A DNA stretch of 64,000 nt, from NCBI GenBank assembly GCA_964468315.1, contig CAYXTA010000001.1, forward strand, positions 64,277-128,276, written 5' to 3'. The DNA comes from an uncultured Candidatus Saccharibacteria bacterium. GTDB lineage: Bacteria > Patescibacteriota > Minisyncoccia > Phycocordibacterales > UBA9973. How positions within the stretch are numbered: position 1 is the stretch's first letter; every line of letters starts with the position of its first letter. The notes under the pieces were generated by a model. The model made no database searches. It was not told the DNA's origin and saw only the letters and a program-made list of their open reading frames with translations. Position numbers and translations under genes: made by a program. Positions 5,712 to 24,090 of this stretch are shown here, one piece after another.

Positions 5712-6236
5712 ATGAAATTAGACCCAATCCTGATGCATATAGATGATGAAGCTTTATACAATGAGTTCTTTGCTCCGCTTTTTCGGTATTTATTTTTTCG
5801 AACGAAAGATCATAATATAGCAAATGATTTGACCCAAACCAGCTTTTTAAAGTTTCTTAGTCAGGAGAAAAAAGCTCTTGAAAAAGAATACGCAGTGAAA
5901 CTACTATTTACTATTGCGAGAAATACACTTATTGATTATCGACGAGTTGAAACTAAAAGAATTCATGAAAATGTTGATGATATAGAAAATATTCGAAGTG
6001 AGATATTAAATCCGGAAGAAGATGCAATTTTAGAAGAAGATAAGAAATTTGTCCGGGAAATACTGCACCAACTTGATGATCTCGAAGGAGAAGTTTTCTC
6101 AATGAGGTTGTCGGGAGAAATAGATTACACTACAATAGCAGCTACTTTGGGAATTAGTTCTGTAAATGCCCGTACAATATATTCACGGGCATTAAAAAAA
6201 GTCGGAGCAGAACTTAAAAAAAGTAATCGTTTTTAA
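5712..6236 (+). CDS. RNA polymerase sigma-70 factor, ECF subfamily.
   Basis: Region-2-like LTQTSFLKFL...TIARNTLIDYRR and a region-4 HTH (DYTTIAATLGISSVNARTIYSRALKKV). About 174 aa. Confidence 0.8.
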   Translation: MKLDPILMHIDDEALYNEFFAPLFRYLFFRTKDHNIANDLTQTSFLKFLSQEKKALEKEYAVKLLFTIARNTLIDYRRVETKRIHENVDDIENIRSEILNPEEDAILEEDKKFVREILHQLDDLEGEVFSMRLSGEIDYTTIAATLGISSVNARTIYSRALKKVGAELKKSNRF

Positions 6237-9155: not shown

Positions 9156-9719
9156 ATGTTAAGTATAAAAATACCAGATTCAAAAAGAAAAAAAGCACTT
9201 ATATTAATAGATCTCCAGCCCATATTTTTAAACAATAAAAATTCTTATGTTTTGAAAAACATGGAAAATCTTTTTAAAAATGAAGAATATTTTATGTATA
9301 TTAAAGCTACTTTTTCTGCTCCTAAGGGCTCTATTTGGGATAAACAGCTCGGATGGATTGTTGAAGAAAATAAAGATACAGATGTATTTCCAGCGAGGAT
9401 TTTAGAATTATTAAAAGATAAAAACTGCATCAATGTTAAAAAAGAAACAAAATCAATATTCAAAGGAACACCAGATATTTTACCGATCTTGAAAGAAAAT
9501 GGAATAGAAGAGATTAATATTATCGGCGTTGATACTAATGATTGTATTCTTGCTACAGCATATGAATCTTTCGACTATGGATTCTTTACATATATCATCG
9601 AAGAATGTGTACAATCCAGCGAAGGGGAGGAAATACATGAAGCAGGATTAAAAGTTTTAAGGCATGTGAATCTGACCAATAATTCTTGTATCGAGAAGAT
9701 TGGGTTTAAGGAAATATGA
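9156..9719 (+). CDS. Isochorismatase-family cysteine hydrolase (nicotinamidase PncA-like).
   Basis: ALILIDLQPIF (Asp) and IIGVDTNDCILATA (catalytic Cys) are typical of the family. The stop overlaps the next start (ATGA). Confidence 0.7.
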   Translation: MLSIKIPDSKRKKALILIDLQPIFLNNKNSYVLKNMENLFKNEEYFMYIKATFSAPKGSIWDKQLGWIVEENKDTDVFPARILELLKDKNCINVKKETKSIFKGTPDILPILKENGIEEINIIGVDTNDCILATAYESFDYGFFTYIIEECVQSSEGEEIHEAGLKVLRHVNLTNNSCIEKIGFKEI

Positions 9720-10060
9720 ACATGCAAACATATAATTTTTTATTTGTAATAGTTTTATCTACTGTTGTACTTACACGACTTTGGCTTTTATTGAAACCAA
9801 TATCTAGTCCTAGATTAAAAGGATTCAAGCTTCATCATTATATGTATGGTTTGATTATTGTTGGCATTTCTATTTTTCTTTCAAATATTATTTTATATGG
9901 AATTGGTTTTGGTTTAATAGTTGATGAATTACCACTTTTTTTAAGGTATAAAAATAATCATTTTCACTGGAAAGAATATAATTCAATTTATAGTAGATTG
10001 GGTGTTATTATTTGCCTTGTTTTGGTGTATATATTTAGAAAATATCTTATTTTATATTGA
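9716..10060 (+). CDS. Small membrane protein (3 TM).
   Basis: Translationally coupled to the isochorismatase-like gene. Hydrophobic. Confidence 0.4.
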   Translation: MNMQTYNFLFVIVLSTVVLTRLWLLLKPISSPRLKGFKLHHYMYGLIIVGISIFLSNIILYGIGFGLIVDELPLFLRYKNNHFHWKEYNSIYSRLGVIICLVLVYIFRKYLILY

Positions 10061-10101
10061 TTTGCTATAATTAAACCATTATTAATTTATAATAAAAATA
10101 T

Positions 10102-10608
10102 ATGACAATAGAAAATCCAATTGGAACGATAAAGAAGGCAGTACAAGCTTTTGCAGAACAAAAAGCAGAAAATGAATTTTTAGAAAAACCAGAAACTCGA
10201 CACTATGATGCTGTTTTTGAACAATTTCGAGCATTAAAAGAAGCTTCCCCTGAAGCACTTGAAACAGCTGTTAAGTTAGCTTCTAATTCTAAAGAAATAA
10301 AAGATGAATTAGGTTCAGAATTATTTATTCTTTATAAGAAAGTTGCAAATGAATTAGATGTAGAAATGAAAGATAAATGTATGATAGCTTTTAAACAATT
10401 AAAAGATGAAAATTTATCTAAAGATGATTTAGAAATAAAAGTAAAAGAATTATATATCAGAGTATCTAAACAAGTGGTAGATATGTTTAAAAATGATCCA
10501 CGCATTGTTTTGGCTTTTAATGGTAAAGAAGAACTTCTGGAAAAACTTTCAAAATTTATGGAAGAATCAGGAATTTCTTTAATAGATGCTATGTTTAAAT
10601 ATAAGTAA
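10102..10608 (+). CDS. Hypothetical helical protein.
   Basis: 168-aa ORF with a convergent terminator downstream. Confidence 0.45.
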   Translation: MTIENPIGTIKKAVQAFAEQKAENEFLEKPETRHYDAVFEQFRALKEASPEALETAVKLASNSKEIKDELGSELFILYKKVANELDVEMKDKCMIAFKQLKDENLSKDDLEIKVKELYIRVSKQVVDMFKNDPRIVLAFNGKEELLEKLSKFMEESGISLIDAMFKYK

Positions 10609-10825: not shown

Positions 10826-11185
10826 TTAAAGTAATTCTTTTAGTTCTTTGACTGCTTTTGAAGCATTGTTATATTTTGAAACTTCTCTATCATTTAAACC
10901 AGCTTCAATTATATCTAACTTGTCTTGAATTAATGATTTGAATTCTACATCACCAATACAATCTATTTGTTTTTTAATCGCCGAAAAGTAGTCATCCAAC
11001 ATACTATAATCATCTTTTATCATTGATTCGTATAAAGATTGTAGATTGACTGTTAGTTGTAATACACCAGACTTTTGCTCTGGTAGGATATGTTGTTTAA
11101 GAACTGTCGACAAATCTAATTTAGCCTTGTCTTCAATATCATGCTTTTCTTGTAAAGCTTTCATTCCATTTTCTATATTATTCAT
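10826..11185 (-). CDS. Hypothetical acidic helical protein.
   Basis: 119-aa ORF. Confidence 0.45.
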   Translation of the reverse strand: MNNIENGMKALQEKHDIEDKAKLDLSTVLKQHILPEQKSGVLQLTVNLQSLYESMIKDDYSMLDDYFSAIKKQIDCIGDVEFKSLIQDKLDIIEAGLNDREVSKYNNASKAVKELKELL

Positions 11186-11315
11186 TTATTTTCTTGTTAT
11201 TGTTTATAATCATTAGAGTTACCTCTAATTTACATATTATACTATAAATAAAAAATAGGGGAAAGTAAGCTTAGAAACTATATATTTGCCACATTTGGTA
11301 ATACTTCAAATGGCT

Positions 11316-11350
11316 CGAGCATTGACTTTTCACTTTTAATATGATATTAC
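11316..11350 (+). promoter_or_regulatory. Repeated promoter/operator-like box (copy 1 of 3): CATTGACTTTTCACTTTTAATATGATATTAC.
   Basis: Near-identical boxes at 12090-12125 and 13762-13797. TTGACT matches a sigma70 -35 hexamer, but the spacing to any -10 is ambiguous. Confidence 0.4.
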
Positions 11351-11385
11351 TTCATTAAGTAATCGCTCTTTTACATTCGTATTTG

Positions 11386-11426
11386 ATTGGTTTTCAGAGG
11401 AGATGCTGTCTCTTGTGGAAACCAAT
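11386..11426 (+). ncRNA. Conserved two-stem hairpin in the 5' leader (copy A) of the NADAR-HTH gene. A cis-regulatory RNA or an operator.
   Basis: ATTGGTTTTC CAGAGGAGATGCTGTCTCTTGTG GAAACCAAT. A 10-bp outer stem and a 6-bp inner stem. It ends 13 nt before the ATG and there is no SD. Confidence 0.5.
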
Positions 11427-11439
11427 TGAAACTAAAATA

Positions 11440-12012
11440 ATGGAAAATAAGAAAATTGACTCATTTAGCGAAGAGAATAGATTTCTCTCCAACTTCTGGC
11501 CCGTAGTCATTTGCTACGAGAATAGAATGTATCCAACAGTTGAACACGCGTATCAGGCTCAAAAGACAACTCAAGAGGAGAAACGACAAAAAGTTGCTGC
11601 TCTTATAACACCAGGCGAGGCTAAAAAATTTGGAGAAAATTTAAAGCGTCTTGGAAAAATACGTCCTGATTGGAGTGATGAATTGCGAATACAGCATATG
11701 ACAGCTTTGGTTGAAAGAAAGTTTTCTTTGAGTAATCTGGAATTGTCTCAAAAACTACTTGCAACTGGGGATATTGAACTTATTGAGGGTAATACCTGGG
11801 ACGATACCTTTTTCGGTGTTTGTAATGGGGAAGGAGAAAACCACTTGGGTAAAATCATTATGGCTACCAGAACAAAATTGAAGGCTGAAGTGCAAAAGAT
11901 AATGGATGCTTTAGTTAAGCATAATGGCAAGAGGCACGATGCTGCAAAGGATCTAAACATTGCGGAAAGGACACTGAGACTGCGCGAACAGGTATTTGGT
12001 ATTTTATATTGA
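11440..12012 (+). CDS. NADAR (YbiA/DUF1768) domain protein with a C-terminal Fis-type HTH.
   Basis: NADAR motifs: FLSNFWP, YPTVEHAYQAQK, LLATGDIELIEGNTWDDTFFGV. C-terminus: GKRHDAAKDLNIAERTLRLREQVFG, which resembles the Fis/NtrC HTH_8. I prefer the ATG at 11440 over the track start at 11383, which lies inside the hairpin. Confidence 0.7.
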   Translation: MENKKIDSFSEENRFLSNFWPVVICYENRMYPTVEHAYQAQKTTQEEKRQKVAALITPGEAKKFGENLKRLGKIRPDWSDELRIQHMTALVERKFSLSNLELSQKLLATGDIELIEGNTWDDTFFGVCNGEGENHLGKIIMATRTKLKAEVQKIMDALVKHNGKRHDAAKDLNIAERTLRLREQVFGILY

Positions 12013-12021
12013 GAAGCAATT

Positions 12022-12058
12022 AGGAGGTTAGAATATAATGTTCTAACCTCCTTTTTAT
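12022..12058 (+). terminator. Intrinsic terminator.
   Basis: Perfect 12-bp stem AGGAGGTTAGAA/TTCTAACCTCCT, followed by TTTTATTT. Confidence 0.6.
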
Positions 12059-12154
12059 TTACCCAAAATAACCATTCGAACATCTTCCCACGTTTAAAGT
12101 ATTGACTTTTAACTTTTAATATAGTACTTTAAGAAAAGTATTTGGTCTTTAACA

Positions 12155-12205
12155 TTGCATGTTTGATTGGTTACCAGAGAAGATTCTGTCTTTTGCGGTA
12201 ACCAA
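12155..12205 (+). ncRNA. Conserved two-stem hairpin (copy B) in the 5' leader of a membrane-protein gene.
   Basis: ATTGGTTACC AGAGAAGATTCTGTCTTTTGC GGTAACCAAT. The same architecture as copy A with compensatory substitutions. Confidence 0.5.
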
Positions 12206-12219
12206 TTAAAACTTAATAT

Positions 12220-12736
12220 TATGCTACAATTTGATTCACTTCTTCTAAAAAAATTCCAATCTTTTTCAGATTGGGTTTCAGTTACTTTTGGATTTAGTAA
12301 CTTCAAGGTTGCTAAATTGTTAATGATTTTATGTGTGATTGATACAGCCTGGGAGATTTATTTAAAAATCACCTACTGTAATATTGACCCAAAATCTTCT
12401 ATACCGGTGTTTAGTATCTTTTTTAGTTTACTATTCATTGTACTCTATGATTACACCATAAGGATTTGTGAGAAATTATCGGTTCTAAACTCAGGTACAA
12501 TCAATCCAGCTTACGTAATGTTACAACCTTGGCGATTCATGAAAATCGTTTTTATTTTCATGGGTATCACCCTATTAACAATAGATTTAACGGCGCATAT
12601 ATTTCTTACTCCATCTCCGTCTTTGAATCATGAGAAGGACCATATACATCACCTTACTGATATTTGTTACTTACTTTGGGATATATATAATCACAGCGTG
12701 TATTGTCTATTTAGTTTCTTGTTATACAAAACCTAA
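12220..12736 (+). CDS. Hypothetical membrane protein (about 4 TM).
   Basis: ATG at 12220, 14 nt after the hairpin. Hydrophobic segments. The track start at 12167 would overlap the structured element. Confidence 0.45.
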
Positions 12737-12842
12737 ACAGGAAAGTAAAATCAAGAAATGGATAAAAAGTATATCTTTTGTTTCCCAAGGTGTTTTGTCT
12801 CTTAAAGCACAAAAAATCTAACTTCTGAAGTCATAATCAATT

Positions 12843-12873
12843 AACCCACTCAATTTTGAGTGGGTTTTTTTAT
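12843..12873 (+). terminator. Intrinsic terminator.
   Basis: AACCCACTCAATTTTGAGTGGGTT followed by TTTTTTT. Confidence 0.6.
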
Positions 12874-12960
12874 TTACCCAAAATCACTATTCGAACATCA
12901 TCCCACGTTCGGAGCAAAATTTTATCATTTTTGAGTCTTTTCTGTTAAAATATATTTATT

Positions 12961-13740
12961 ATGCGAATCGAGAAAAAAGTTTGGCCGGAATATTTCCAAC
13001 AAATTGTAGATAATAAAAAGACCTTTGAATTAAGGTTAAATGATTTTGATATATGTGAGGGAGATACTCTTGTTCTTAATGAGTGGGATCCAGCTACCAA
13101 GGACTTCACAGGAAGAACACTTGAAAAAAAAGTAGGTTATGTTGGTAAGTGGAAAATAGATGATCTTACAAAGTTTTTACCAAGGCAAGACATTGAGGAT
13201 AAAGGCCTTCAAGTTATTTCTATGAAAGACCAAAAATCCCCAATGTCAAAACTAATAATAATCCGTGGAAACTCTGGCTCAGGAAAGAGCACTATCGCAA
13301 AAGAACTGAGAGCAAGATTAGGCAAAGAAAAAACCGCCCTCATTGAGCAGGATTATTTACGTCGCCACGTACTTGGAGAGATAGGCAAAAGTGGCGATGA
13401 TAATGTTGAATTGATAGAATTGACTACAAGATTTGCTTTAGAGAAAAACTATTTAACTATAGTTGATGGCATAATGCCGTCAGAATATTATGGTGCTATG
13501 TTAAAAAGGCTGAATGATATAAATCCTAAAAATACACATATTTTTTACTTAGATATATCCTTAGAAGAAACACTTAAAAGACATACTACCAAACCAAATC
13601 GTAATGATTTTGGTGAACCAGAAATACGAGAATGGTACAGAAATAAAGATACATTAAAACTAGAAAACGAGACTGTAATTGACGAGAAATCAACTTTAGA
13701 AGAAAGTATAAAATTTATATTGGAGGTTATTAAATATTAG
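12961..13740 (+). CDS. Fusion protein: an N-terminal ASCH/PUA-like domain and a C-terminal P-loop kinase (AAA_33/zeta-like).
   Basis: N-terminus KKTFELRLNDFDICEGDTLVLNEWDP...GRTLEKKVGYV (small beta-barrel ASCH/DUF3850-like). C-terminus Walker A IIIRGNSGSGKSTIAKEL and Walker B-like YLTIVDG. Confidence 0.55.
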   Translation: MRIEKKVWPEYFQQIVDNKKTFELRLNDFDICEGDTLVLNEWDPATKDFTGRTLEKKVGYVGKWKIDDLTKFLPRQDIEDKGLQVISMKDQKSPMSKLIIIRGNSGSGKSTIAKELRARLGKEKTALIEQDYLRRHVLGEIGKSGDDNVELIELTTRFALEKNYLTIVDGIMPSEYYGAMLKRLNDINPKNTHIFYLDISLEETLKRHTTKPNRNDFGEPEIREWYRNKDTLKLENETVIDEKSTLEESIKFILEVIKY

Positions 13741-13913
13741 GGAATACTTCAAATAGCTCGAGCATTGACTTTTATATTTTAATATAGTACTTTAAGAAAA
13801 GTATTCGGTCTTTAACATCCTTTGTTTACCTATTGAATTACTCACTTTGCTTTTCAATTTTGGAAGTCAATGTGGGTAATTCAATAATCTATAAACTTTA
13901 AATAATAAAAAAA

Positions 13914-14387
13914 ATGACAAAAGTTGTAAAACTCTTCGGACTTGATGATCCAAGTGTAGATAATAATATTAAAATAATTGCTTTAACAGGAAAATGTATC
14001 GAATGGGCGATGGGTTTTCTGGGAGGGGATGATGATCCACTTACAGGTCTTATTATAGGAGATAAAGATTTCGATGACACGATTCTTCAAAAATTAAACA
14101 TATTTGAGACTGAGGAAGAAAAAATTAAAACAATCCTTCAAGATTTAAATAAACCGGATTCTGAATTTGAAGGAAAACTTATGAGCCTGGGTGAACTTAG
14201 TGGAAGAGAAGAGGATACCCATATTGAGATAATTGCTCTAGCAGCAAAAAATCTGGAATGGGAAATTGGTGTTCTCGCAGGAGAAGATGAACCAATCACA
14301 GGACTTATCCTCGGAGAAAAGGAATTTGTTAAAGCAACTCTTCGAAAATTGAATAAATTTGATTTGCTTTTTAAGGAGCAGAAATAA
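13914..14387 (+). CDS. Hypothetical protein made of two tandem homologous ~65-aa repeats.
   Basis: IKIIALTGKCIEWAMGFLGGDDDPLTGLIIGDKDFDDTILQKLN is repeated as IEIIALAAKNLEWEIGVLAGEDEPITGLILGEKEFVKATLRKLN. Confidence 0.45.
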   Translation: MTKVVKLFGLDDPSVDNNIKIIALTGKCIEWAMGFLGGDDDPLTGLIIGDKDFDDTILQKLNIFETEEEKIKTILQDLNKPDSEFEGKLMSLGELSGREEDTHIEIIALAAKNLEWEIGVLAGEDEPITGLILGEKEFVKATLRKLNKFDLLFKEQK

Positions 14388-14410
14388 GTATAAACCATAA
14401 AAATAAAACA

Positions 14411-14716
14411 ATGTTAGACCTTTCAAAAAAAGAAGAGAAAACTCTTCGAGAAATAACAGAAAAATACGATGCTAAGTTCGAATTATCTTTAGACGAAGAT
14501 GGCAAAAACTTTTTATGTAAGATTGTGGCAGGGGATGGCCAATCTTTTCATTATAAAGATAAAACAAAGAAAAGTAATGGAGTCCTAATGAAAGCAATAA
14601 AATCTCTTAACCCAGAAGAAGCTATGAAAAAAGCAATTGAATTCTTTTCAACCGTTGAGTATTTTACTTGGAACCTTTATGAACCTAATTGTGTAGATAT
14701 GCATGATGATTGTTAA
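14411..14716 (+). CDS. Small hypothetical protein.
   Basis: 101-aa ORF with a terminator immediately downstream. Confidence 0.4.
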   Translation: MLDLSKKEEKTLREITEKYDAKFELSLDEDGKNFLCKIVAGDGQSFHYKDKTKKSNGVLMKAIKSLNPEEAMKKAIEFFSTVEYFTWNLYEPNCVDMHDDC

Positions 14717-14734
14717 TTAATTGATTTTTTATAC

Positions 14735-14768
14735 AAAAAACCGTTTCGTAAAGATACGGTTTTTTTTA
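14735..14768. terminator. Bidirectional intrinsic terminator.
   Basis: AAAAAACCGTTTCGTAAAGATACGGTTTTTTTT between convergent genes. Confidence 0.55.
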
Positions 14769-14847
14769 TTTTCCATCTAAAATGTCCCGTATCAGAGGTT
14801 TCCTAAAATATAAAAACGCACTGATATAATCAATGCGTTTTTGTTTT

Positions 14848-15450
14848 TTAAATTATCTCAACTTTCAAATTATTTAAAACAAAGGCTTCGTTTCGAAAAC
14901 AGACCATCCAGCGGTTATCCTTGTTGTAATACCTTACAAATTTTATCATATTAACATCTGTTATATATAAATTTGTAGGTATACAAAAATTCATGTATTC
15001 AACGAAATCTTCTTCAATTTCAGAAACAACTTTTGTTTTACATGTTCCCAAGATAGGAATAATCAAATTATGTTCTGTAACACACGAGTCGGGACCTTTG
15101 CAGGTAAAAGAAATTTTTAAGCTTTTACCTTTGAAAATAGCAGACTCTTCAATTTTGTTCAGTATAAAATACCAAGTACCAGAACGGTCGTCTTGTGAGC
15201 AGTACCATTTAGCTAACCACCCAGCTTGTCTGTATTTCCTGAGAACTTCATTTACTACTCTTTCATCGAGGCCCGATGAGATTCCTCCTTGCTTGTTACT
15301 ATAAGGGAAAGGTTTAGGCTCAACTTTTAGTTCTTTACCTTTAACATAGTATTTTACTATGTAATTGTCGATTTGTTTTTCATAAAGAGCGATCATACTC
15401 TTTTGATTATCGGTGAAAGTTTCATCAATGGATCCTGTTTTAATGGCCAT
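14848..15450 (-). CDS. Hypothetical Cys-containing protein.
   Basis: 200-aa ORF. The antisense ORF 14993..15304 is judged spurious. Confidence 0.45.
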   Translation of the reverse strand: MAIKTGSIDETFTDNQKSMIALYEKQIDNYIVKYYVKGKELKVEPKPFPYSNKQGGISSGLDERVVNEVLRKYRQAGWLAKWYCSQDDRSGTWYFILNKIEESAIFKGKSLKISFTCKGPDSCVTEHNLIIPILGTCKTKVVSEIEEDFVEYMNFCIPTNLYITDVNMIKFVRYYNKDNRWMVCFRNEAFVLNNLKVEII

Positions 15451-15709
15451 AGTTTCTATAGATTTAAGGGTTTATATTTATTTTTTTTAAAAGGACTTTA
15501 GTTATACGCAATATATCATATTATTATAAATATGTCAAATATACCTCATCTTTATATAGAAATTTTGTTTACCAAAAACGCTATTCCAATATTCTTCTTT
15601 GGTTAAAGTATTATTGACTATTATTTATTTTTGTGTTAAATTAAAACTAAATTTGTTTGGGCGTCTTGCCCGTTAAATAACTTAATTTAACCTTTAAAAA
15701 CTACATATC

Positions 15710-16180
15710 ATGGCAAGTATACTAATTCTTGAAGAGCTTGAACAAGCTTTACAGCTCTGGGAAGACACTAATCTTTGGGCAGAAGCAAAATTCCAATTAT
15801 TCCTACAGGGTAAAATTGAGGAAGATGAAAATTATGGTAAACCGCTCATTGGTACAGAAATCGATGATGCTGGATTCTTACAAAGAGGGATTAAAAATTT
15901 TAACTCTCTTCGTAGTGCTTTGAATAATCATATTGAGCTTGATCCAACTCAATTTCTTCCGAGGGTCACGACTGAAAAAAGACCGACACACACAACTCTA
16001 GATTTCTCTCGTATGTTTGTTGTGCGAGGGATCACTTTTTCCCCATTTTTTCTTTCGAAATGGATGAATTACAAAAAGGTGTTCAGTGTAAAAACCCCAG
16101 ACATTATTCAGCCTGTTTCTATTCTTGAAAAGAATTATCTGAGCAAAGTGCCTTACAGTTCTTTTATTATTAGGTTTTAA
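15710..16180 (+). CDS. Hypothetical protein with locally higher GC.
   Basis: 156-aa ORF whose codon usage is visibly GC-richer than its neighbours. Confidence 0.4.
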   Translation: MASILILEELEQALQLWEDTNLWAEAKFQLFLQGKIEEDENYGKPLIGTEIDDAGFLQRGIKNFNSLRSALNNHIELDPTQFLPRVTTEKRPTHTTLDFSRMFVVRGITFSPFFLSKWMNYKKVFSVKTPDIIQPVSILEKNYLSKVPYSSFIIRF

Positions 16181-16198
16181 GAACCTTTAAAGATTGAT

Positions 16199-17011
16199 TT
16201 GATAGAGGATAAAAATGCTGATCATGTGCATCAAATCGAGGAAAAGTTAGTTATGGTTACTACTGATGGTGTCTATATGGATATTTTCTGTTTAGGGCCA
16301 TCAAAAAGTATAACTGATTTTTCCTTAACATCACAGGTAAGGCATGATTTGGTAGAAAATCTTTCTAAAAAAAGCCAGACCCAAAAGTTTGTAAATCAGG
16401 TAAATTCTGTTAACTTAGGGTTACCTTTTGTCAGTTTAACGATTGAAGTTACTTCGGGCTTGTCAGTAGTTCAAAAATATAATGAAGGTGATGATACTTT
16501 TGTTACAACTTTTGACTCTAACAGAAATCCTGGAATCTTTGATTCTAAAATTAATGGAAAAACTGAACAGTCGCAAGCATATGTACCCGGTGACTATCCT
16601 CATGCGATGTCTGAAATACTCCATCTTCACCGATTTTTTATCGATCTGGTAAATGGTTTTTGCAAAGTGGTTTCTGAATTACCAGCAAGACAAACGGTTA
16701 TTACTGAAAGTCCTGCTTCGCTGCCTGAAACTTTAAGGCAGGGAAAACAAGAAACTAAATCCTGGTTTTCAGTCGAAATTACTGATGTCAGAGATGTGAG
16801 TGGTGAAGAAAATCCCAGTGTTCATTTTGCTTCACATACAGGTGGTGAAAAATCAGCTCATTGGAGAAGGGGACACTGGAGAATTTACATGAACAAAGAT
16901 GGGTCTTTCAAAAAAGAAGTATGGATTTCAGAGGCACTGATTCGGGAAGACAAACTGGAAACTGAAAACCTTCAAGGTAGCGCTACACTGCTAAAAAGTG
17001 AAAAAAGTTGA
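16199..17011 (+). CDS. Hypothetical protein with locally higher GC; TTG start per the ORF track.
   Basis: 270-aa ORF followed by a strong terminator. Confidence 0.4.
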   Translation: MIEDKNADHVHQIEEKLVMVTTDGVYMDIFCLGPSKSITDFSLTSQVRHDLVENLSKKSQTQKFVNQVNSVNLGLPFVSLTIEVTSGLSVVQKYNEGDDTFVTTFDSNRNPGIFDSKINGKTEQSQAYVPGDYPHAMSEILHLHRFFIDLVNGFCKVVSELPARQTVITESPASLPETLRQGKQETKSWFSVEITDVRDVSGEENPSVHFASHTGGEKSAHWRRGHWRIYMNKDGSFKKEVWISEALIREDKLETENLQGSATLLKSEKS

Positions 17012-17053
17012 CATGATTTTGCTAAATACTAAATTACCCAGAGCAATCTGGTA

Positions 17054-17080
17054 CCCCGATCTAACAAGATCGGGGTTTTT
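17054..17080 (+). terminator. Intrinsic terminator.
   Basis: CCCCGATCTAACAAGATCGGGG followed by TTTTT. Confidence 0.65.
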
Positions 17081-17173
17081 ATTTACCAAAAATCGTAATT
17101 TTAACATAATCCTACGTTTGAAGTCTTTAAAATATACCTTAATAGAAGTTCAAACTTGTGATATTATTGGTGT

Positions 17174-17655
17174 ATGAAAAAGTCATTAACTTTGTGTATG
17201 ATTCTTAAAGATAACCAGATACTCCTAGGTATGAAAAAAAGAGGATTTGGTGTTGGTAGATGGAATGGGTTTGGTGGAAAAGTTGATGAAGGTGAAACAA
17301 TAGAACAAGGAGCTATTCGTGAATTAAAAGAGGAGACTGGAATAGATGCTGTAAATATTAAAAAAGTTGGTATTTTGGATTTTTCATTTCAAAATGATAA
17401 TAAAATTTTAGAAGTTAATGTTTTTAAAGTTATAGATTTTATAGGAGAACCTACAGAAAGTGAAGAGATGAAACCACAATGGTTTTTTTTGATAAAATAC
17501 CATTTAGTCAAATGTGGACAGATGATATTCAATGGTTTCCATTTCTATTAAATAATAAATTATTTAGAGGAGAATTTTTATTTGATAGACCTTCTGATTC
17601 TGAATATTCTGCAAAAATAATTACTCAAAAACTAAATGAAGTTTCAAATTTTTAA
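17174..17655 (+). pseudogene. MutT/NUDT1(MTH1)-like Nudix hydrolase interrupted by a frameshift in a T8 homopolymer (17483-17490).
   Basis: Nudix box GGKVDEGETIEQGAIRELKEETGI in frame 1 ending at 17551. The adjacent frame continues DKIPFSQMWTDDIQWFPFLLNNKLFRGEFLF...QKLNEVSNF to 17655. From memory this matches the MTH1 C-terminus ([27 protein letters not shown]). Confidence 0.55.
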
Positions 17656-17691
17656 TATTTCCATTCGAATATTTCCCTAAGTTTTTCTGTC

Positions 17692-18273
17692 TTGATAGAA
17701 TTTCAAATTTTCTGTTATACTTATTTTATGGAAGGTCATTTTAATACAGAAAAAAATAAATCTGAACAATTAGAAATAATAAGAAAAGAGGTTGAAAAAA
17801 TTGTCGATAAACTCGGATTAGGAATCGATCAGGATATAAAAGAAACAGTGGCTATTTTTCGTGCAATGGATTTTCCAACTTCATCATCATGTTCTGGTCA
17901 TACTAACGATATGGGTGATGAAGGGTACGGATTGCCATATGTTGAAGTATACGCTCCTGCTCCCAAAGGATGGATTGAAGATAAAACGAATAAAGAATTA
18001 AGAGAAAAATGGAAACAAGAAAACGTTAAATATAGAAAAAAAATTATACCTCTTTTAGAGGATTTTAATAAAAAAAGAACTTCCGCGAATGACGTTCTTT
18101 TACACATAAGCGATATAGGTTCTTTTAGTGCTTTTAGAATTGAGAGTATTGGGGTAGAGGAGACAAGAAAATTAAAGTCTGAAGAAGAGTTGGTAATTAA
18201 AATAAAACAATTTCAAGAAGAAATGAAGTTTTTTACAGAGTTTTTGAAAGATAAATTCTTAAAAGGAAAATAG
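17692..18273 (+). CDS. Hypothetical protein.
   Basis: 193-aa ORF. The real start may be the Met at about 17725 (MEGHFNTEK). Confidence 0.45.
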   Translation: MIEFQIFCYTYFMEGHFNTEKNKSEQLEIIRKEVEKIVDKLGLGIDQDIKETVAIFRAMDFPTSSSCSGHTNDMGDEGYGLPYVEVYAPAPKGWIEDKTNKELREKWKQENVKYRKKIIPLLEDFNKKRTSANDVLLHISDIGSFSAFRIESIGVEETRKLKSEEELVIKIKQFQEEMKFFTEFLKDKFLKGK

Positions 18274-18316
18274 AATGAACGCTGTTATTTTTATATGATA
18301 AAATACAATATAATAT

Positions 18317-18748
18317 ATGGAAAGATTTAAATTAAATGTAGCTGTTTACTTGTTATTAATAAAAGGTGATAAAATACTTCTTTTGCGAAGATTTAATACT
18401 GGTTGGCAAGATGGAAATTACAGTCTTCCTGCTGGACATTTAGAAATGGGTGAAACTCCGACTTCTGGAATGATGCGAGAAGGTTTAGAGGAAATAGGAA
18501 TTACGTTACACAAAGAAGATTTAGAAATGGTACATACTATGCATAGAATACATGGATATTATATTGATTTATTTTTTACTGCTAAAAAATGGGAAGGAGA
18601 GATCGTAAATAAAGAATTAAATAAATGTGATGATCTAAATTGGTTTCCACTTGAAGATTTACCAATAAATATAGTACCTTCAGTAAAATCTGCCATTGAA
18701 CAATATAAAAAAGGTGTTCATTTTTCAGAGTTTGAAATGGAGGGGTAA
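18317..18748 (+). CDS. Nudix hydrolase.
   Basis: Nudix box GHLEMGETPTSGMMREGLEEIGI (Gx5Ex7REuxEExGu). Confidence 0.75.
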   Translation: MERFKLNVAVYLLLIKGDKILLLRRFNTGWQDGNYSLPAGHLEMGETPTSGMMREGLEEIGITLHKEDLEMVHTMHRIHGYYIDLFFTAKKWEGEIVNKELNKCDDLNWFPLEDLPINIVPSVKSAIEQYKKGVHFSEFEMEG

Positions 18749-19114: not shown

Positions 19115-20398
19115 ATGAATAAAAATACTCAATTAATTTGGCGTACAGAAGTACGTAAAGTAGAAAGTCTTAAAACATGGAGTAAAAATCCTCGTAAATT
19201 AACAAAATCAGCATTTAAAACCTTAGTGGAAAGGATTGAGCAACGCGGTTTTCACGCAGTACTTGTAATTGATACAGATGACACGATTCTTTCAGGTAAT
19301 CAGAGAAAAAATGCACTTATACATTTAGGAATTACTGAAGTAACAGTGTTGGTTCCAAACCGTAAACTTACAGAAGATGAAAGAAAAAAGATTGCTTTAG
19401 AATCTAATTTAAATGATGGGGAATGGGATTTTTCAAAATTAAAATCTTTTAACATGGATCTGCTGAGTGATATAGGTTTCCCTGATTCAGATCTTTCAAA
19501 TATCTGGTCGGAAAATCTTGAAGCTGAAGATGATAACTTTGATGAAAAACTTGAACTGTCAAAAATTAAAGTTCCAAAAACTAAACTTGGAGATCTAATT
19601 ATTATGGGAAATCATAGATTAATTTGTGGAGATTCAACGGATCCTAAAGTTCTTAAAAAGTTATTCGGAAACGAGAAAGCATCTATGATATATTCTGATC
19701 CGATTTACAATATTAAAATAAATTATAGTAAAGGGATTGGAGGTAAACAAAAATATGGTGGAAATGTAAATGACAATCGTAGCTTTGAAGAATACAAAGA
19801 ATTTCTAAATAAAAGTTTAATTAGTGCACTTGCTGTATCAAAAGATGACCTTCATGTTTTTTACTGGAATGATCAGACAGGGATAGGAATTGTACAAGAT
19901 TTATATCGTGAACTTGGTATTGAAAACAAGCGAGTATGTTTGTGGATTAAAAATGGACAGAATCCTGTGCCGAGTGTGGCGTTTAATAAATGCTATGAAC
20001 CATGCATATATGGTGTAAAAGGACGACCATATATTTCTTCAAATTTACAAAACCTCAATGAGGTCATGAATAAAGAAATGACAACTGGTAATAGTCTTAT
20101 GGAAGAAACACTTGATCATCTTGATATTTGGACAGTGAAAAGATTGTCAGGTAAAGATTACGAACATGCTACAAGTAAACCTCCAAAACTTCACGAAAAA
20201 GCTATTCGTCGTTGCACTAAGCCTGGTGATATTATTCTAGATTCATTTTCAGGTTCTTCCAGCACACTTATTAGTGCTGAACAATTAAAACGTCGAGTAT
20301 ATGCTGTCGAGCTAGAAGAAGTATTTTGTGATTTGGCGATTCGCAGGTACGAAAAATTAACAGGTAATAAAGCAAAAATAATCCATGAAAAAAAATAA
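19115..20398 (+). CDS. ParB-like nuclease domain fused to a DNA N6-adenine/N4-cytosine methyltransferase (phage/plasmid type).
   Basis: N-terminal ParB/Srx-like region (GFHAVLVIDTDDTILSGNQRKNA). MTase motif IV SDPIYNI (DPPY-like) lies before motif I ILDSFSGSSST, the beta-class order. Confidence 0.7.
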   Translation: MNKNTQLIWRTEVRKVESLKTWSKNPRKLTKSAFKTLVERIEQRGFHAVLVIDTDDTILSGNQRKNALIHLGITEVTVLVPNRKLTEDERKKIALESNLNDGEWDFSKLKSFNMDLLSDIGFPDSDLSNIWSENLEAEDDNFDEKLELSKIKVPKTKLGDLIIMGNHRLICGDSTDPKVLKKLFGNEKASMIYSDPIYNIKINYSKGIGGKQKYGGNVNDNRSFEEYKEFLNKSLISALAVSKDDLHVFYWNDQTGIGIVQDLYRELGIENKRVCLWIKNGQNPVPSVAFNKCYEPCIYGVKGRPYISSNLQNLNEVMNKEMTTGNSLMEETLDHLDIWTVKRLSGKDYEHATSKPPKLHEKAIRRCTKPGDIILDSFSGSSSTLISAEQLKRRVYAVELEEVFCDLAIRRYEKLTGNKAKIIHEKK

Positions 20399-20792
20399 AA
20401 AGAAAGATGAGTTTTTAGAACAACTCAAAAAAGTTCCAATTGTTTTAGTTGCATGTGAAAAATCTGCACTCTCTCGCAATACTGTATATCGATGGCGAAA
20501 GGAAGATAATGAATTTTCTGTTGCAATGGATCAAGCCCTTAAAGAGGGCGAAGAATTAGTAAATGATATGACTGAAAGTCAGCTCTTAAGTATGATCAAA
20601 GATAAAGAATGGTCAGCTATTTCTTTTTGGCTTCGACATAGGAATCCAAAGTTTAGAGACAAGGTTGAACTCGTCGGAAATATTAACCATACCACTCGTG
20701 AATTAACTTCTGAAGACGAAGAACTACTTAAGGAAAGTCTTCGTCTTGCATTACCAACTAATCATAAACAAAATGATGAACCTAAATCCTAA
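20385..20792 (+). CDS. Putative terminase small subunit / HTH DNA-binding protein.
   Basis: HTH-like ALSRNTVYRWRKEDNEFSVAMDQALKEG. It sits immediately upstream of the terminase large subunit gene and overlaps it. Confidence 0.45.
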   Translation: MKKNKKKDEFLEQLKKVPIVLVACEKSALSRNTVYRWRKEDNEFSVAMDQALKEGEELVNDMTESQLLSMIKDKEWSAISFWLRHRNPKFRDKVELVGNINHTTRELTSEDEELLKESLRLALPTNHKQNDEPKS

Positions 20793-22230
20793 AGAAGAAG
20801 AGATTATCAAACATATGATTAAAGATCGTACCTTTCGATTAGCATTAGTTAAAAAAAGTCACTATTGGTTTTTCTATTATTACTTCGGACAAAAATATGC
20901 AAAGTATCCAACAGCAGATTTTCAACGTGAAATATTTAATATCACAGAAAATCCTGAATTAAAAAATATTGTAATCACAGCATTTCGTGGATCAGCTAAA
21001 TCTACGATTATTACCTTGTCTTATGTGATTTGGTCGATAGTCGGAATTAAACAAAAAAAGTTTCCAATAATTCTTGGTCGAACACAATTAAACACGCAAC
21101 CAAATCTTAATGCTATTAAGAAAGAATTAGAAGAAAACGATTTATTCAGAAAAGATTTTGGTCCATTTAAGGAAGAGGTTGATACTAATGGAACCACACA
21201 ATCTATTATTCTTCCTCAATACAATGCTCAGATATCAACACGTTCAATAGGGCAAAATATTAGAGGTATTAAACATTTGCAATACAGACCGGATTTAATT
21301 ATCGCTGACGACATAGAGGACTCTGATTCAATAAAAAGTCAGAAAAATAGAGATGAGTTATTTGATTGGCTAACTGGTGATGTCATTCCAGCAGGAGATC
21401 GTGATACTCAATTAATATTCATTGGTACACCACTTCATAATGATTCAATTCTAATGCGTTTAAAAGCATTATTTCAAAATGGAGATCCTAAAAATATTTA
21501 CCGTGAATTCCCAATTGTAGATGAAAATAATATTCCTTTATGGCTTGGAAAATTTAAGACACAAGAAGACATCGATAATGAGAGAAAAAAGTGTTTTAGT
21601 GAAATTATGTGGCAACGAGAGTATTTACTCAAGATTTTAGATAGTGAAGATCAAATAATTAAGCGAGAACATATTCATTATTACGAAGAATTACTAACTG
21701 GACATTGTCGTTTTTCTGCTACCGCTATTGATCCAGCACGTTCTCTTAAATCAACTGCTGATTATACTGCTATTGTTTCAGGAAAAATGTTTGAATATGA
21801 AAAGAATAGGAAATTATATATTATGCCTAATCCAATAAATGAACGTCTTACTACAGACCAACAAATACAAAAAGTAAAAAATATTTCGAAAGGATTAAAT
21901 AATAACGAAAGTTATTCCCGTGTATATGTTGAAGATGTTGGATTTCAAGGAGTCATTACTGATTTGTTAAAAAGTGAAGGAATTCCCGCAAAACCATTTC
22001 CTGTCCGAGGTTGGAGCAAAGAAGATCGTCTTATGTCCGTATCTTCACTTATTGAACTTGGGAGAGTGGTCTTTCCAAAGAAAGGAGCTGAAAAATTACT
22101 TGAACAAATTATTGGATTTGGGAAAGAATCACATGATGATCTGGTCGATGCTTGTACAATGTTAATATTTCAAGCTTTTGAAGATTCTAAAAAACCAAGA
22201 CCAAGAATTCAGAATATTTTTATTTATTAA
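20773..22230 (+). CDS. Phage terminase large subunit.
   Basis: Walker A-like FRGSAKSTIIT. Walker B/DE LIIADDIED. C-terminal RNaseH-like nuclease region (IDPARSLKSTADYTAIVSG...VEDVGFQG...HDDLVDA). The ATG at 20773 is preferred over the track start at 20746. Confidence 0.7.
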   Translation: MMNLNPKEEEIIKHMIKDRTFRLALVKKSHYWFFYYYFGQKYAKYPTADFQREIFNITENPELKNIVITAFRGSAKSTIITLSYVIWSIVGIKQKKFPIILGRTQLNTQPNLNAIKKELEENDLFRKDFGPFKEEVDTNGTTQSIILPQYNAQISTRSIGQNIRGIKHLQYRPDLIIADDIEDSDSIKSQKNRDELFDWLTGDVIPAGDRDTQLIFIGTPLHNDSILMRLKALFQNGDPKNIYREFPIVDENNIPLWLGKFKTQEDIDNERKKCFSEIMWQREYLLKILDSEDQIIKREHIHYYEELLTGHCRFSATAIDPARSLKSTADYTAIVSGKMFEYEKNRKLYIMPNPINERLTTDQQIQKVKNISKGLNNNESYSRVYVEDVGFQGVITDLLKSEGIPAKPFPVRGWSKEDRLMSVSSLIELGRVVFPKKGAEKLLEQIIGFGKESHDDLVDACTMLIFQAFEDSKKPRPRIQNIFIY

Positions 22231-22240
22231 TTAACAAATA

Positions 22241-22272
22241 AAAAAGACCTGTAGTTTATACAGATCTTTTTT
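22241..22272. terminator. Bidirectional terminator.
   Basis: AAAAAAGACCTGTAGTTTATACAGATCTTTTTT between convergent genes. Confidence 0.5.
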
Positions 22273-22289
22273 AAGTGCCAATTTAATTA

Positions 22290-22841
22290 TTAGTCTAGAT
22301 CTACTACTATTATTCCTCCTCCAAATAAACTTCCATTGTATTGGAATTGGAGACCTTTTGTGTTATTAGGTATTTCAAATCCAACCCAACCCGTACGCTT
22401 ACTATTTGCAATAACAGCACCATCAAGAGATTTGTTCATATTCTCTATAATTTTATCAGTAACACTTATTTGATAACTATTACCATCTGCGTCTCGTAAA
22501 AACATTTGTCCTAATGTTGTTATATATTGTTGTGTTGATCCGGTATTTTGAATAGTTATATTTAAATTAATATATTTATTACCAGTTGAAGGTTTTGCAA
22601 ATTCTGAACCTTGTGAAAATGAAACATTATTTACTGTGACTATTGAATCACCAAGTTGTATTTTATCTCCAACTTTGTAGGTTTGATTTTGTGATTGGAC
22701 TGTTGTTGTATCAGTGGTATTATTACTTCCAACTTTTTTAGGAGTAGAACTACCAGAACTAGCTATTATTAAAATAATAATTATCACAAGAATCCAAAAC
22801 CAAACTTTTTTATAAAATTTCTTTTTAGGAGTATTCTCCAT
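22290..22841 (-). CDS. Secreted/lipoprotein-like DUF4352-type beta-sandwich protein.
   Basis: N-terminal TM/signal. Ser/Thr-rich linker. A beta-rich domain (GDKIQLGDSIVTVNNVSF...YINLNITIQNTG...WVGFEIP) typical of the DUF4352 family, which is often next to phage genes. Confidence 0.5.
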   Translation of the reverse strand: MENTPKKKFYKKVWFWILVIIIILIIASSGSSTPKKVGSNNTTDTTTVQSQNQTYKVGDKIQLGDSIVTVNNVSFSQGSEFAKPSTGNKYINLNITIQNTGSTQQYITTLGQMFLRDADGNSYQISVTDKIIENMNKSLDGAVIANSKRTGWVGFEIPNNTKGLQFQYNGSLFGGGIIVVDLD

Positions 22842-22891
22842 AATATTTTCTTTTGCGTTTTATTATTTATAAATTCATGAAAATGAGACAC

Positions 22892-22982
22892 AAAAAGCTC
22901 ATCACATGAGTGAGGGTTTAAACCCTCCATATCCGTTTCCAGATACGGCCGTTGAAGACAAACCTCACATGATGAGCTTTTT
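22892..22982. repeat. 91-bp palindromic element with 13-bp terminal inverted repeats AAAAAGCTCATCA / TGATGAGCTTTTT and a nested perfect 16-bp palindrome GAGGGTTTAAACCCTC (22913-22928).
   Basis: Seen directly. It also contains a small CCGT...ACGG hairpin, and lies in the intergenic region upstream of the minus-strand DUF4352 gene. Confidence 0.55.
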
Positions 22983-23259
22983 ATCTTCAACGGACTTTTT
23001 ACCATGCCTTTATTGCTAAAGGTTTAGGCTACTTGTATTTAGTTGTAAATGAATAATACCATTCTCGACCATATTATTCAACGCCTCATTGTATCGCAAA
23101 CTCTTGAAATCACAGAGGATAGTTACCAACATATAAGACTATTCTTTAACATATCTTTTATACATTTACAAAATACCCATATCTTATATAATATGATTAA
23201 GTAAGTATGTCCTTATGGCTGTGTTCGACAGACTCGTTCATTAAAAAACATATAGAAAG

Positions 23260-23916
23260 ATGATAACTGAAAAGATTACATCAGACCAAGAGAAACAATT
23301 AACACGTTTCCTTGAAGACGCTATGCGTAAACTTGACCTATCAAAAGAGCAGGCTCAGGAAATTATTAAAAACGGTGGCAAAATGCAAGCCGAAGTGCGA
23401 GATGTATTGAATAAGTACTCAATAGCAGACAAACGCTTTACATGTGTAAACACCTTTGAAATTGTTGTACCTGCTAACTACAAGCATGAAACACGTTTGG
23501 ATTCATTTTTTAAAGAAAACAAGAAAAAGTTTTATTACTACAATAATGCTATTACTGACAAAAATTTTGCTAAAGCTACAACAAAATTGGAGCCAGGTAG
23601 AAAGTTTAAAGTGAAAGTATTCCAAATCAACAACATAATAACATTAACAGATTGTACAGATTTTTTAAAAAGTCAAAACGCAGTTTTAACTGGTGCCCAA
23701 GGAGCTTCGCTTGTTTACGAACAAAAGAAAGAGGAGTTAGTAAAAGGTAAATGGGCTATTTCTTTTGACGAAAAAGATTCGTTATGGAAAGATTCTAATG
23801 GTTACTTCAGGGTGCCTTATGTGTTCGCTCGCACAGATGGAGACTTCGAGTTCCTCCTTAGTCACTTTGGGATTGCCTGGGTTGAAGGTCGCTGTCTCTT
23901 GTGCTTCTGTGACTAA
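23260..23916 (+). CDS. Hypothetical protein.
   Basis: 218-aa ORF followed by a perfect 32-bp palindromic terminator. Confidence 0.45.
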   Translation: MITEKITSDQEKQLTRFLEDAMRKLDLSKEQAQEIIKNGGKMQAEVRDVLNKYSIADKRFTCVNTFEIVVPANYKHETRLDSFFKENKKKFYYYNNAITDKNFAKATTKLEPGRKFKVKVFQINNIITLTDCTDFLKSQNAVLTGAQGASLVYEQKKEELVKGKWAISFDEKDSLWKDSNGYFRVPYVFARTDGDFEFLLSHFGIAWVEGRCLLCFCD

Positions 23917-23971
23917 AAGTCCTTTGGCACTTTGTATCTTAAATCATCTTTTGCCTTTAATTCTTAAATTT

Positions 23972-24009
23972 GTCCCATTTACTTTATATAAAGTAAATGG
24001 GACTTTTTT
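23972..24009 (+). terminator. Intrinsic terminator built on a perfect 32-bp palindrome.
   Basis: GTCCCATTTACTTTATATAAAGTAAATGGGAC followed by TTTTTT. Confidence 0.7.
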
Positions 24010-24090
24010 GTTTTAATCTAACAAAAGTTACCAACACGTTACCAACGATCAAGCCTTAGCAAAAGGCTTTTTCTCTGTCATTAATTAGAT

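Follow-up and report, generated by a model that had tools for sequence, protein, structure and literature searches.

The window analysed here, a stretch of 64 kb from contig CAYXTA010000001.1 of an uncultured bacterium, carries between 11.27 and 18.75 kb a run of small genes separated by repeated intergenic modules. The window has a GC content of about 30%. Its genes for GatB, the F1 ATP synthase and two tRNAs indicate cellular DNA, and the run is best read as an array of about eight small gene cassettes on the chromosome of a Paceibacterota-like member of the Patescibacteria. The cassettes follow a common plan: each has its own sigma-70-type promoter-like site, a short leader, a hairpin in the 5'-untranslated region (5'-UTR), one gene (rarely two) and an intrinsic terminator. 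The junctions contain a short repeat, designated element E, which is the 3' end of a gene for a large serine recombinase (LSR). It is with this element, and with its probable part in the assembly of the array, that we are mainly concerned. The features are listed in Table 1. L-numbers designate comparison contigs or loci, and P0299 is a protein found in a profile search.

Table 1. Features of the cassette array, in window coordinates
Feature	Position	Strand	Remarks
E-type junction repeat, degenerate, left edge of array	11270..11321	+	CTTAGAAACT..GGTAATACTTCAAATGGCTCGAGCA; alignment with L014
Promoter module P1	11322..11376	+	-35 TTGACT 11322-11327, 17-nt spacer, TG-extended -10 TATTAC 11345-11350
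5'-UTR hairpin, copy 1	11382..11432	+	repeat family D5; ends ~8 nt before ATG
Cassette 1 gene, NADAR domain and C-terminal Fis-type helix-turn-helix (HTH)	11440..12012	+	Pfam NADAR 2.5e-20; homologues in other arrays
Cassette 1 intrinsic terminator	12022..12052	+	hairpin then T-run
E copy 1	12054..12101	-	minus strand reads TWEDVRMVILGK then stop; right-hand end swapped for TAAAGTA; 43-nt repeat match 12052-12094
Promoter module P2	12102..12156	+	TTGACT, 17-nt spacer, TACTTT
5'-UTR hairpin, copy 2	12162..12212	+	84% identical to copy 1
Cassette 2 gene, 171-aa predicted membrane protein without family match	12221..12736	+	
Cassette 2 intrinsic terminator	12843..12866	+	hairpin then T-run
E copy 2, best preserved	12869..12916	-	reads LLRTWDDVRIVILGK then stop; profile E-value 1.2e-11; repeat match 12867-12909, 93% identical
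Cassette 3 promoter-like site	12922..12951	+	TTATCA, 18-nt spacer, TAAAAT, TG-extended
Cassette 3 gene, DUF3850/ASCH domain fused to PRK06762-like P-loop kinase	12961..13740	+	
Short degenerate E-type repeat	13741..13764	+	GGAATACTTCAAATAGCTCGAGCA; directly after stop codon; D3, 88% identical to 11293-11342
Promoter module P3	13765..13819	+	P2 architecture and palindrome (13786-13805); repeat family D4, 88% over 67 nt
Different 5'-UTR hairpin, cassette 4	13831..13886	+	27-nt arms, 81% complementary
Cassette 4, 157-aa protein (13914-14387) and 101-aa protein, both without family match	13914..14716	+	
Partial E-type remnant	14763..14800	+	TTTTTTTTATTTTCCATCTAAAATGTCCCG; read by eye; D10
Inverted cassette, 200-aa gene at 14848-15450	14812..15538	-	own promoter and terminator
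Inverted-cassette terminator	14842-14812	-	
Inverted-cassette promoter	15538-15510	-	TTGACA, 17-nt spacer, TATATT
Degenerate E-type repeat without preceding terminator	15567..15613	+	read by eye
Cassette 6 promoter	15614..15642	+	TTGACT, 17-nt spacer, TAAATT, TG-extended
Cassette 6 gene, 433 aa when intact	15710..17011	+	nonsense change at 16178
Cassette 6 intrinsic terminator	17053..17076	+	hairpin then T-run
E copy 3 and inverted partial E	17078..17168	+	E 17078-17127; repeat match 17076-17118, 77% identical
Cassette 7 gene, NUDIX hydrolase	17174..17551	+	
E copy 4, weak/degenerate	17641..17683	+	repeat family D2, 63%
Last unit(s), 181/193-aa protein of unknown function and second NUDIX hydrolase	17692..18748	+	

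An earlier note on this DNA had described three strong terminators, each followed by the same element of about 45 bp. The terminators are real hairpins with T-runs, and the three copies of the element are confirmed as E copies 1 to 3. The label "post-terminator" fails, however, at 15567-15613: since no terminator stands in front of this E-type repeat, E is not a post-terminator element as such. The modules lie where the note had placed them, with coordinates off by up to about 15 nt, and it did not mention the 5'-UTR hairpin, a fourth shared module, or the further degenerate E-type copies, which were recognised by eye. The core of E, ATTCGAACATCWTCCCACGTT, occurs twice in the window, as against 0.00 occurrences expected. 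Only two of the approximately eight window copies are well preserved, and the minus-strand frames of copies 3 and 4 hold in-frame stops, as judged by eye. In the copy 3 tract, E is followed by an inverted partial copy, TAGAAGTTCAAAC (17143-17155), and then by a TG-extended -10. Pattern and profile searches of the other ~57 kb of the window found no copy of E, of the promoter boxes or of the palindrome. The island elements are therefore not generic promoters, whereas the earlier note had named their being such as the finding that would speak against it. Neither at the gathering threshold nor, on the island, at E-values up to 5 did Rfam provide a family for the island modules.

The origin of E is apparent from its coding properties. 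In about 24 loci the minus strand of E can be read as ..LLRTW[DE]DVR[MI]xI[LIM].., with a stop a few codons further on, and it is at the wobble positions of this frame that E varies. A longer variant, E2, has a tail of some 60 nt and encodes LPLVDEFRTLNWVKIKSDLEFSKIFEVFPSLVV followed by a stop; among its copies, third-position differences number 130, versus 73 at first and 49 at second positions. A profile of this longer peptide, run against 1.84 billion proteins, gave 78 matches. Most of them, including all the best-scoring ones, align at the C-terminus of the protein or a few residues from it. The longer of the matched proteins are C-terminal fragments of LSRs; one of these, P0299, aligns with residues 328-530 of the LSR of L034 (E-value 4e-29). 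The latter is intact (L034 2015-3631, with Resolvase, Recombinase and Zn_ribbon_recom domains) and ends in ..LLRTWDDVRMEIMRKNY and a stop, its last 17 codons being E. An LSR remnant at L029 88-506 likewise terminates in E. Because the L034 enzyme, the L029 remnant and the LSR fragments share this tail, E can be identified as the 3' end of an LSR gene, i.e. its conserved last 15-35 codons, read on the minus strand. The T-rich "pre-E" motif, which the earlier note had counted with the element, contains the last codons of the LSR and its stop codon.

Other readings of E fare less well. That it is a free-standing small gene is unlikely in view of inconsistent start codons, in-frame stops and the presence of the same peptide at the end of LSR fragments. 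The idea of an RNA 5' end or hairpin was dropped, as the stem is not kept in the variants and the substitutions are codon-periodic on the other strand. A group I intron (Rfam RF00028, 66 bits) lies at L034 5372-5644 on the minus strand, a few kb from the E-linked recombinase.

The arrangement is not peculiar to the window. The E core ATTCGAACATCNTCCCAYGTT matched 29 metagenome contigs, about 24 of which combine a GC content of 31-42% with the extended motif ..ATTCGAACATCNTCCCAYGTTCGGAGC. With the E profile, same-orientation arrays spaced at 0.7-2.5 kb are found in L029 (seven copies), L027 and L044 (four each) and L018, L012 and L014 (three each). Overall the modules occur in at least 12 low-GC metagenome contigs, in same-orientation arrays that carry different cargo. 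Within a genome, the copies of E almost always agree at the single position that varies freely, whereas genomes differ from one another there: it is always C in L029 and L044 and always G in L027. The genes beside E are mutually unrelated; the upstream gene is co-directional at about 20 of 27 sites, and the downstream gene is sometimes on the opposite strand. The only cargo common to the window array and the other loci is NADAR. A long E pattern had no match in 185,579 species genomes or in the Joint Genome Institute (JGI) metagenomes because it was too specific to the window copies. Neither E nor the combination of promoter and palindrome was found in 2.9 million viral contigs; eight viral contigs that matched GAGCATTGACTTTT have no E or hairpin nearby and were put down to chance. 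L027 also contains, in three places between E and the promoter (5810-5995, 10060-10240 and 10915-11095), a conserved segment of about 180 nt with a 22-bp perfect hairpin and further GC-rich stems; it has no Rfam match and is absent from the window.

Comparisons between loci indicate that E marks the edges of exchangeable units. The NADAR protein of L014 is only 58-59% identical to that of the window, yet its P1 promoter-leader module is 96.5% identical (87 nt, L014 9393-9478). L014 also has a second P1 copy and three E copies beside unrelated cargo. The NADAR protein of L054 is 96% identical, and this contig shares with the window only 11317-12112 (94% nucleotide identity), that is, promoter, leader, NADAR gene, terminator and E, up to the next -35; both neighbours differ. 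L055 and L056 are 99.9% identical over 15 kb, save that a three-gene block of 2.6 kb in one has a three-gene block of 2.8 kb in its place in the other. The left breakpoint falls exactly after ..GGGAGC of an E-type element and identity returns at the next E-type element. The LSR element of L034 abuts E at that same right-hand edge, while the similarity of L038 stops 2 nt earlier, after ..GGAG. The earlier proposal of an island built from standard parts in the manner of a cassette array is borne out by the window/L054 and L055/L056 comparisons and by the arrays elsewhere.

A link with tRNA-Asn emerges from two junctions. In L014 a tRNA-Asn(GTT) gene (9325-9397) is directly followed by the P1 module. 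The homology with the window begins at window 11316, corresponding to L014 9393 at the end of this tRNA gene, and the E-type repeat at the left edge of the window array occupies the place of the tRNA 3' end. In L027 a tRNA-Asn gene (3612-3687) is followed by a module of 40 or more nt that in L017 and L032 comes after E. Together these junctions suggest that E and the 3' end of tRNA-Asn are interchangeable as left partners of cassette starts. The right half of E (TCCCACGTTCGGAGCC) is partly like the tRNA-Asn end (TCCCTACCCGGGGAGCC). Attachment (att) repeats at the 3' end of a tRNA gene are the usual signature of integrative elements that target tRNA genes. What would be unusual is that here, as the sequences predict, att site and recombinase gene overlap. 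A different LSR gene, in L014, extends into a tRNA-Ala gene in like manner.

The promoter-like box TTGACTTTTNNNTTTTAATAT is exact at 11322-11342, 12102-12122 and 13765-13785, in agreement with the three copies of a TTGACTTTT-type box reported previously. These are the only window matches with fewer than two mismatches; at up to three mismatches there are eight, versus 1.59 expected, and none of 100 shuffles reached that number. The palindromic box AGTACTTTAAGAAAAGTATT, said to be present twice, is indeed exact at 12123-12142 and 13786-13805 (0.04 expected). The TTGACTTTT box is predicted to be each cassette's own sigma-70-type promoter. The TTTAATAT pointed out in the earlier note falls in the promoter spacer, the predicted -10 being TATTAC in P1 and TACTTT in P2 and P3, with transcription predicted to start about 7 nt beyond it. 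In P1 an inverted repeat, ATTACTT/AAGTAAT (11346-11363), overlaps the -10 and is followed by the conserved GCTCTTTTACAT; P2 carries the palindrome AGTACTTT-AAGA-AAAGTATT (12123-12142) and GGTCTTTAACAT. Fifteen cassette promoters from five genomes show one layout, TTGAC[TA], 16-17 nt and TAnnn[TC], mostly TG-extended and in most cases with a TCTTTnACAT leader motif some 15 nt downstream. The palindromic box exemplifies a more general feature: 10 of these 15 promoters have an inverted repeat in which the predicted -10 hexamer forms the left arm and the right arm follows a few bases further on (window 11345-11363, 12125-12140 and 13788-13803; also in L014, L027 and L054). The arms covary by promoter class: ATTACTT/AAGTAAT, TACTTT/AAAGTA, GCTATCA/TGATAGC and ATACTA/TAGTAT.

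The consensus 5'-UTR hairpin comprises 21 pairs, five of them with compensatory changes, and 99% of the alignment cells are paired; none of 500 shuffles reached its score. Its invariant G-U pairs imply that the structure works only on the plus strand. The hairpin thus appears to be an RNA-level element, and it probably affects the translation or the stability of the mRNA. The cassette genes that a hairpin precedes have no visible Shine-Dalgarno sequence. The same hairpin module recurs in L027 behind other promoters.

Taken together, it is probable, if well short of certain, that the array of the window is an orphan in partial decay, and that its promoter-bearing cassettes were brought together by recombination at att-type repeats left by LSR elements which target tRNA-Asn. 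According to this proposal, LSR-bearing elements would integrate at the 3' end of tRNA-Asn, with crossover at or near ..GGAGC(A), and each integration event would leave one more copy of E. E-bounded cassettes lacking a recombinase would then build up, to be swapped, replaced or inverted at E, whether through the action of an LSR in trans or through homologous recombination within the conserved junction sequences. What the comparisons show directly are the modules and their conservation in other genomes, the arrays, the differences between strains in whole cassettes, the coding origin of E and the covariation of the hairpin. The acting enzyme, the exact point of crossover and the transcription start sites are, like the action of a recombinase on E itself, what we infer from them. 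The array of the window looks orphan and decaying because it has no tRNA-Asn and no cognate LSR, most of its E copies are degraded and one of its cargo genes is broken by a nonsense change.

Several observations weigh against this proposal. Only one intact LSR fused to E was found, and no full-length LSR is among the 78 matches of the long-variant tail. No LSR gene in the window carries an E-type tail. The single LSR encoded there (24091-25434) shares 25-29% identity with the enzymes of L034 and L038, differs from them in its tail and forms part of another conserved module, distinct from the array. The L055 array has no recombinase within 10 kb on each side. Most E copies in the window are degenerate, and a tRNA-Asn gene is absent from its 64 kb. 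E matches the 3' end of tRNA-Asn only in part (about 12 of 17 nt, and TTCGA), and the tRNA covariance model does not match the E-type elements of L027. To the right of the seam no conservation is seen, and a two-armed att site of the canonical LSR type is therefore not apparent. All the breakpoints observed fit homologous recombination within conserved junctions equally well. Finally, the cassette promoters and starts are predictions from sequence.

Some of these points lend themselves to a different model, in which homologous recombination is the only process at work. The junctions would be kept as expression parts, E copies would be inert scars of old LSR insertions, and cassettes would be exchanged by RecA upon DNA uptake, with junctions of 30-90 bp serving as homology arms. 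The lack of a cognate recombinase beside the arrays of the window and of L055, as well as the decay of the window E copies, would be expected. The modules are also mosaic: the P1-hairpin unit, 96.5% identical between the window and L014, precedes different genes, and in L027 the hairpin module stands behind other promoters. Natural competence is reported for another lineage of Patescibacteria, the Saccharibacteria (PMC10187176). However, the left breakpoints of window/L054 and of L055/L056 and the L034 junction coincide at the right-hand edge of E, with L038 only 2 nt short. Moreover, E is nearly identical over 27 or more nt where orthologous proteins are about 59% identical, which is hard to understand for an inert scar, and its copies are homogeneous within the genomes of L029, L044 and L027. 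We regard exchange by homologous recombination alone as rather unlikely, but worth serious consideration.

One may also ask whether E and the palindromes are bound by one transcription factor or several, the NADAR-HTH protein perhaps among them, that would co-regulate genes of stress response or nucleotide housekeeping. E often lies just upstream of the -35 box, 10 of 15 promoters have inverted repeats that overlap both the -10 and the predicted start, an HTH_8-like tail is present in one cassette protein, and the cargo is enriched in NUDIX, NADAR and kinase enzymes. Yet the distance from E to the promoter ranges from 0 to more than 200 nt, a terminator can intervene, and at several loci the downstream gene is on the other strand. 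As the arms of the -10 inverted repeats differ by promoter class, no single factor fits. Together with the codon periodicity of E, its identity as the tail of an LSR gene and the variation in cassette content between near-identical strains, this makes a regulon very improbable.

Immediately to the right of the array, the window contains genes for the small and large terminase subunits and an LSR. The array might accordingly be taken for an accessory or early-gene region of this phage-like element (19.1-25.4 kb), with the repeated promoters as its early promoters, and the NADAR, ASCH and NUDIX cargo does have phage-family matches. But the relatives of the element in L010 and L011 share only window 19224-25157 and lack the array, arrays elsewhere lack phage genes and the modules are absent from the 2.9 million viral contigs, all of which leaves this explanation with even less to recommend it. 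Lastly, E, particularly in its long form, could hardly be a selfish non-autonomous repeat akin to repetitive extragenic palindromic (REP) sequences or miniature inverted-repeat transposable elements (MITEs), bringing promoter or terminator activity like the Correia elements of Neisseria: the inverted ends of the long form (about 17-19 nt, TTCGAACATCNTCCCAC ... GTAGGTAGAAGTTCGAA, window 17099-17155), the homogeneity of copies within a genome and the start of contig L005 inside E copy 2 (window 12892), as expected if a repeat breaks assemblies, are outweighed by the confinement of the copies to arrays in a single orientation, with none in the other 57 kb of the window, by the lack of visible target-site duplications and by the origin of E as the terminal part of a recombinase gene and its position in place of a tRNA 3' end. 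A dispersed repeat is likewise not what the window shows, all E copies lying within 11.3-17.7 kb.

To return to recombination at LSR-derived att repeats, the closest analogues of such an arrangement would be an integron array, a staphylococcal cassette chromosome (SCC) composite island or tRNA-accreted elements lacking an integrase. Like integrons, and like clusters of attC sites lacking integron-integrases (CALINs), the arrays consist of same-orientation, mostly single-gene cassettes with a repeat after each gene. Repeats are alike within one array but differ from clade to clade, closely related strains vary in their cassettes with breakpoints at the repeat, and an array need not have a recombinase nearby. 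In contrast to integrons, there is no IntI here. E is about 30-45 nt long (attC sites measure 55-140 nt), codes on the other strand and lacks the imperfect bipartite hairpin of attC with its R''/L''-L'/R' boxes, its own short hairpin TTCGAAC/GTTCGGA being lost in the E3 variant. Each cassette has its own promoter-like site and terminator, whereas integrons use one common promoter, and the sole recombinase tied to E is a serine recombinase. The window scans are in line with the earlier statement that neither an integron integrase nor an attC-like core is present. A Pfam scan of about 28 window open reading frames (ORFs), including all those from 8.2-29.3 kb, detected no recombinase other than a serine recombinase, and no tyrosine recombinase was found in the window or any other locus at an E-value below 0.01 (tblastn with an approximate E. 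coli XerD query, which is weak for distant integrases).

The SCC elements and their Ccr recombinases offer another parallel. SCC elements are linked to an LSR, as the present arrays seem to be in part; both consist of tandem units bounded by direct repeats that overlap the 3' end of a gene, and many units lack a recombinase. SCC units of this kind are thought to be moved in trans. Same-orientation E copies separate the units in the window, L012, L014, L018, L027, L029 and L044, and an LSR is tied to E in L034 (intact) and L029 (remnant), though not in the window or L055. SCC units, however, measure many kb and reside in rlmH, whereas those described here are single genes of about 0.6-1.5 kb in Patescibacteria hosts, and the repeat is the LSR gene's own, tRNA-Asn-like 3' end. 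The tRNA-accreted elements (those cis-mobilizable by streptococcal integrative and conjugative elements, and the satellite and cargo arrays of tycheposons) resemble the present arrays in that those of L014 and L027 start at a tRNA gene (tRNA-Asn), in having direct repeats that stand in for the tRNA 3' end and in that most units lack a recombinase. They differ in that E, with an additional ACATCA and about 12 of 17 nt matching, is no longer like enough to the tRNA end to restore a tRNA; the units here contain one gene each with shared standard promoter and leader parts, and the tRNA gene of the window is gone. As in the pdif modules of Acinetobacter, small gene modules are bounded by short recombination sites in an array without a dedicated recombinase; pdif sites, however, alternate in orientation and have the structure XerC-6 bp-XerD (28 nt, two arms of 11 nt around a centre of 6 nt), whereas E is repeated in direct orientation throughout and the search for a Xer-like gene gave none. 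The idea that E, as a 10-6-10 imperfect palindrome, is itself a dif/Xer site was abandoned on the same grounds, the palindrome being moreover lost in E3 and the turn in GC skew (~57 kb) lying some 40 kb away.

More tentatively, the arrays may represent an integron-like platform for gene capture in Patescibacteria, in which an LSR, with its own 3' end as docking site, would excise, capture and reshuffle single-gene, promoter-bearing cassettes in trans at the ~40-bp E. This is possible but doubtful, judging from the sequence comparisons. Full-text literature searches found no description of the arrangement seen in these arrays. A cassette system of this kind would give integrons and SCC elements a counterpart based on a serine recombinase. 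The genomes of Patescibacteria are tiny, few mobile elements are known in them, and little is understood of how they acquire accessory genes; part of the gene turnover between their strains would be accounted for by cassettes with standard junctions. The conserved promoter and leader modules are candidates for portable expression parts in organisms to which genetic methods are only beginning to be applicable, and an LSR whose att site is defined to some 40 bp would be a candidate tool enzyme.

As to the cargo, the HTH_8 match of the NADAR protein (5e-4) is under the Pfam cut-off. A 63-aa ORF (12630-12821) overlaps the 3' end of the 171-aa membrane-protein gene, possibly as the result of a frameshift, and a short ORF at 17479-17655, overlapping the 3' end of the first NUDIX gene, may mark another. 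Such frameshifts would fit a decaying cargo. The nearest relatives of the ASCH-kinase protein (61-73% identical) consist of the kinase alone (164-170 aa), so that the fusion looks lineage-specific; close kinase relatives carry the names Paceibacterota or Patescibacteria. The 157-aa protein of cassette 4 contains an internal tandem duplication, the two 149-nt halves of which (13959-14107 and 14214-14362) are 72% identical. A C-to-T change at 16178 (CAA to TAA) splits the 433-aa gene of cassette 6, which is intact in L005, a contig from another sample that is otherwise 99.99% identical. The precomputed label "AcrVA2-like" for the 433-aa protein was not reproduced at E-values up to 0.01.

The phage-like module at 19115-25434 encodes a ParB-like N6/N4 DNA methylase, the two terminase subunits, a DUF4352 protein, a LOOT RNA, a 218-aa protein and the LSR. 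L010 and L011 have the module as well (large terminase 73-79% identical), and terminase relatives are found in a Candidatus Paceibacterota genome bin. With the names of the kinase relatives, this makes a bacterium of the candidate phyla radiation the most likely host. Among the part of the module's ORFs that was scanned, no capsid, portal or tail gene was recognised, and a comparison of 18.6-19.2 kb with 25.3-26.1 kb gave no att repeats. The module could be a satellite-like or remnant element. The LOOT RNA (Rfam RF03000, 82-90 bits) is found at window 22912-23030 on the minus strand, L010 12047-12165, L011 12977-13098 and L014 5413-5532. It adjoins an LSR gene at all four loci, and in the three with clear gene orientation it lies upstream on the opposite strand. 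A functional link between this RNA and the recombinase gene may therefore exist. Finally, the cumulative GC skew of the window reaches its maximum at about 56-58 kb, where gene orientation turns from plus to minus, which suggests that the replication terminus lies inside the window.

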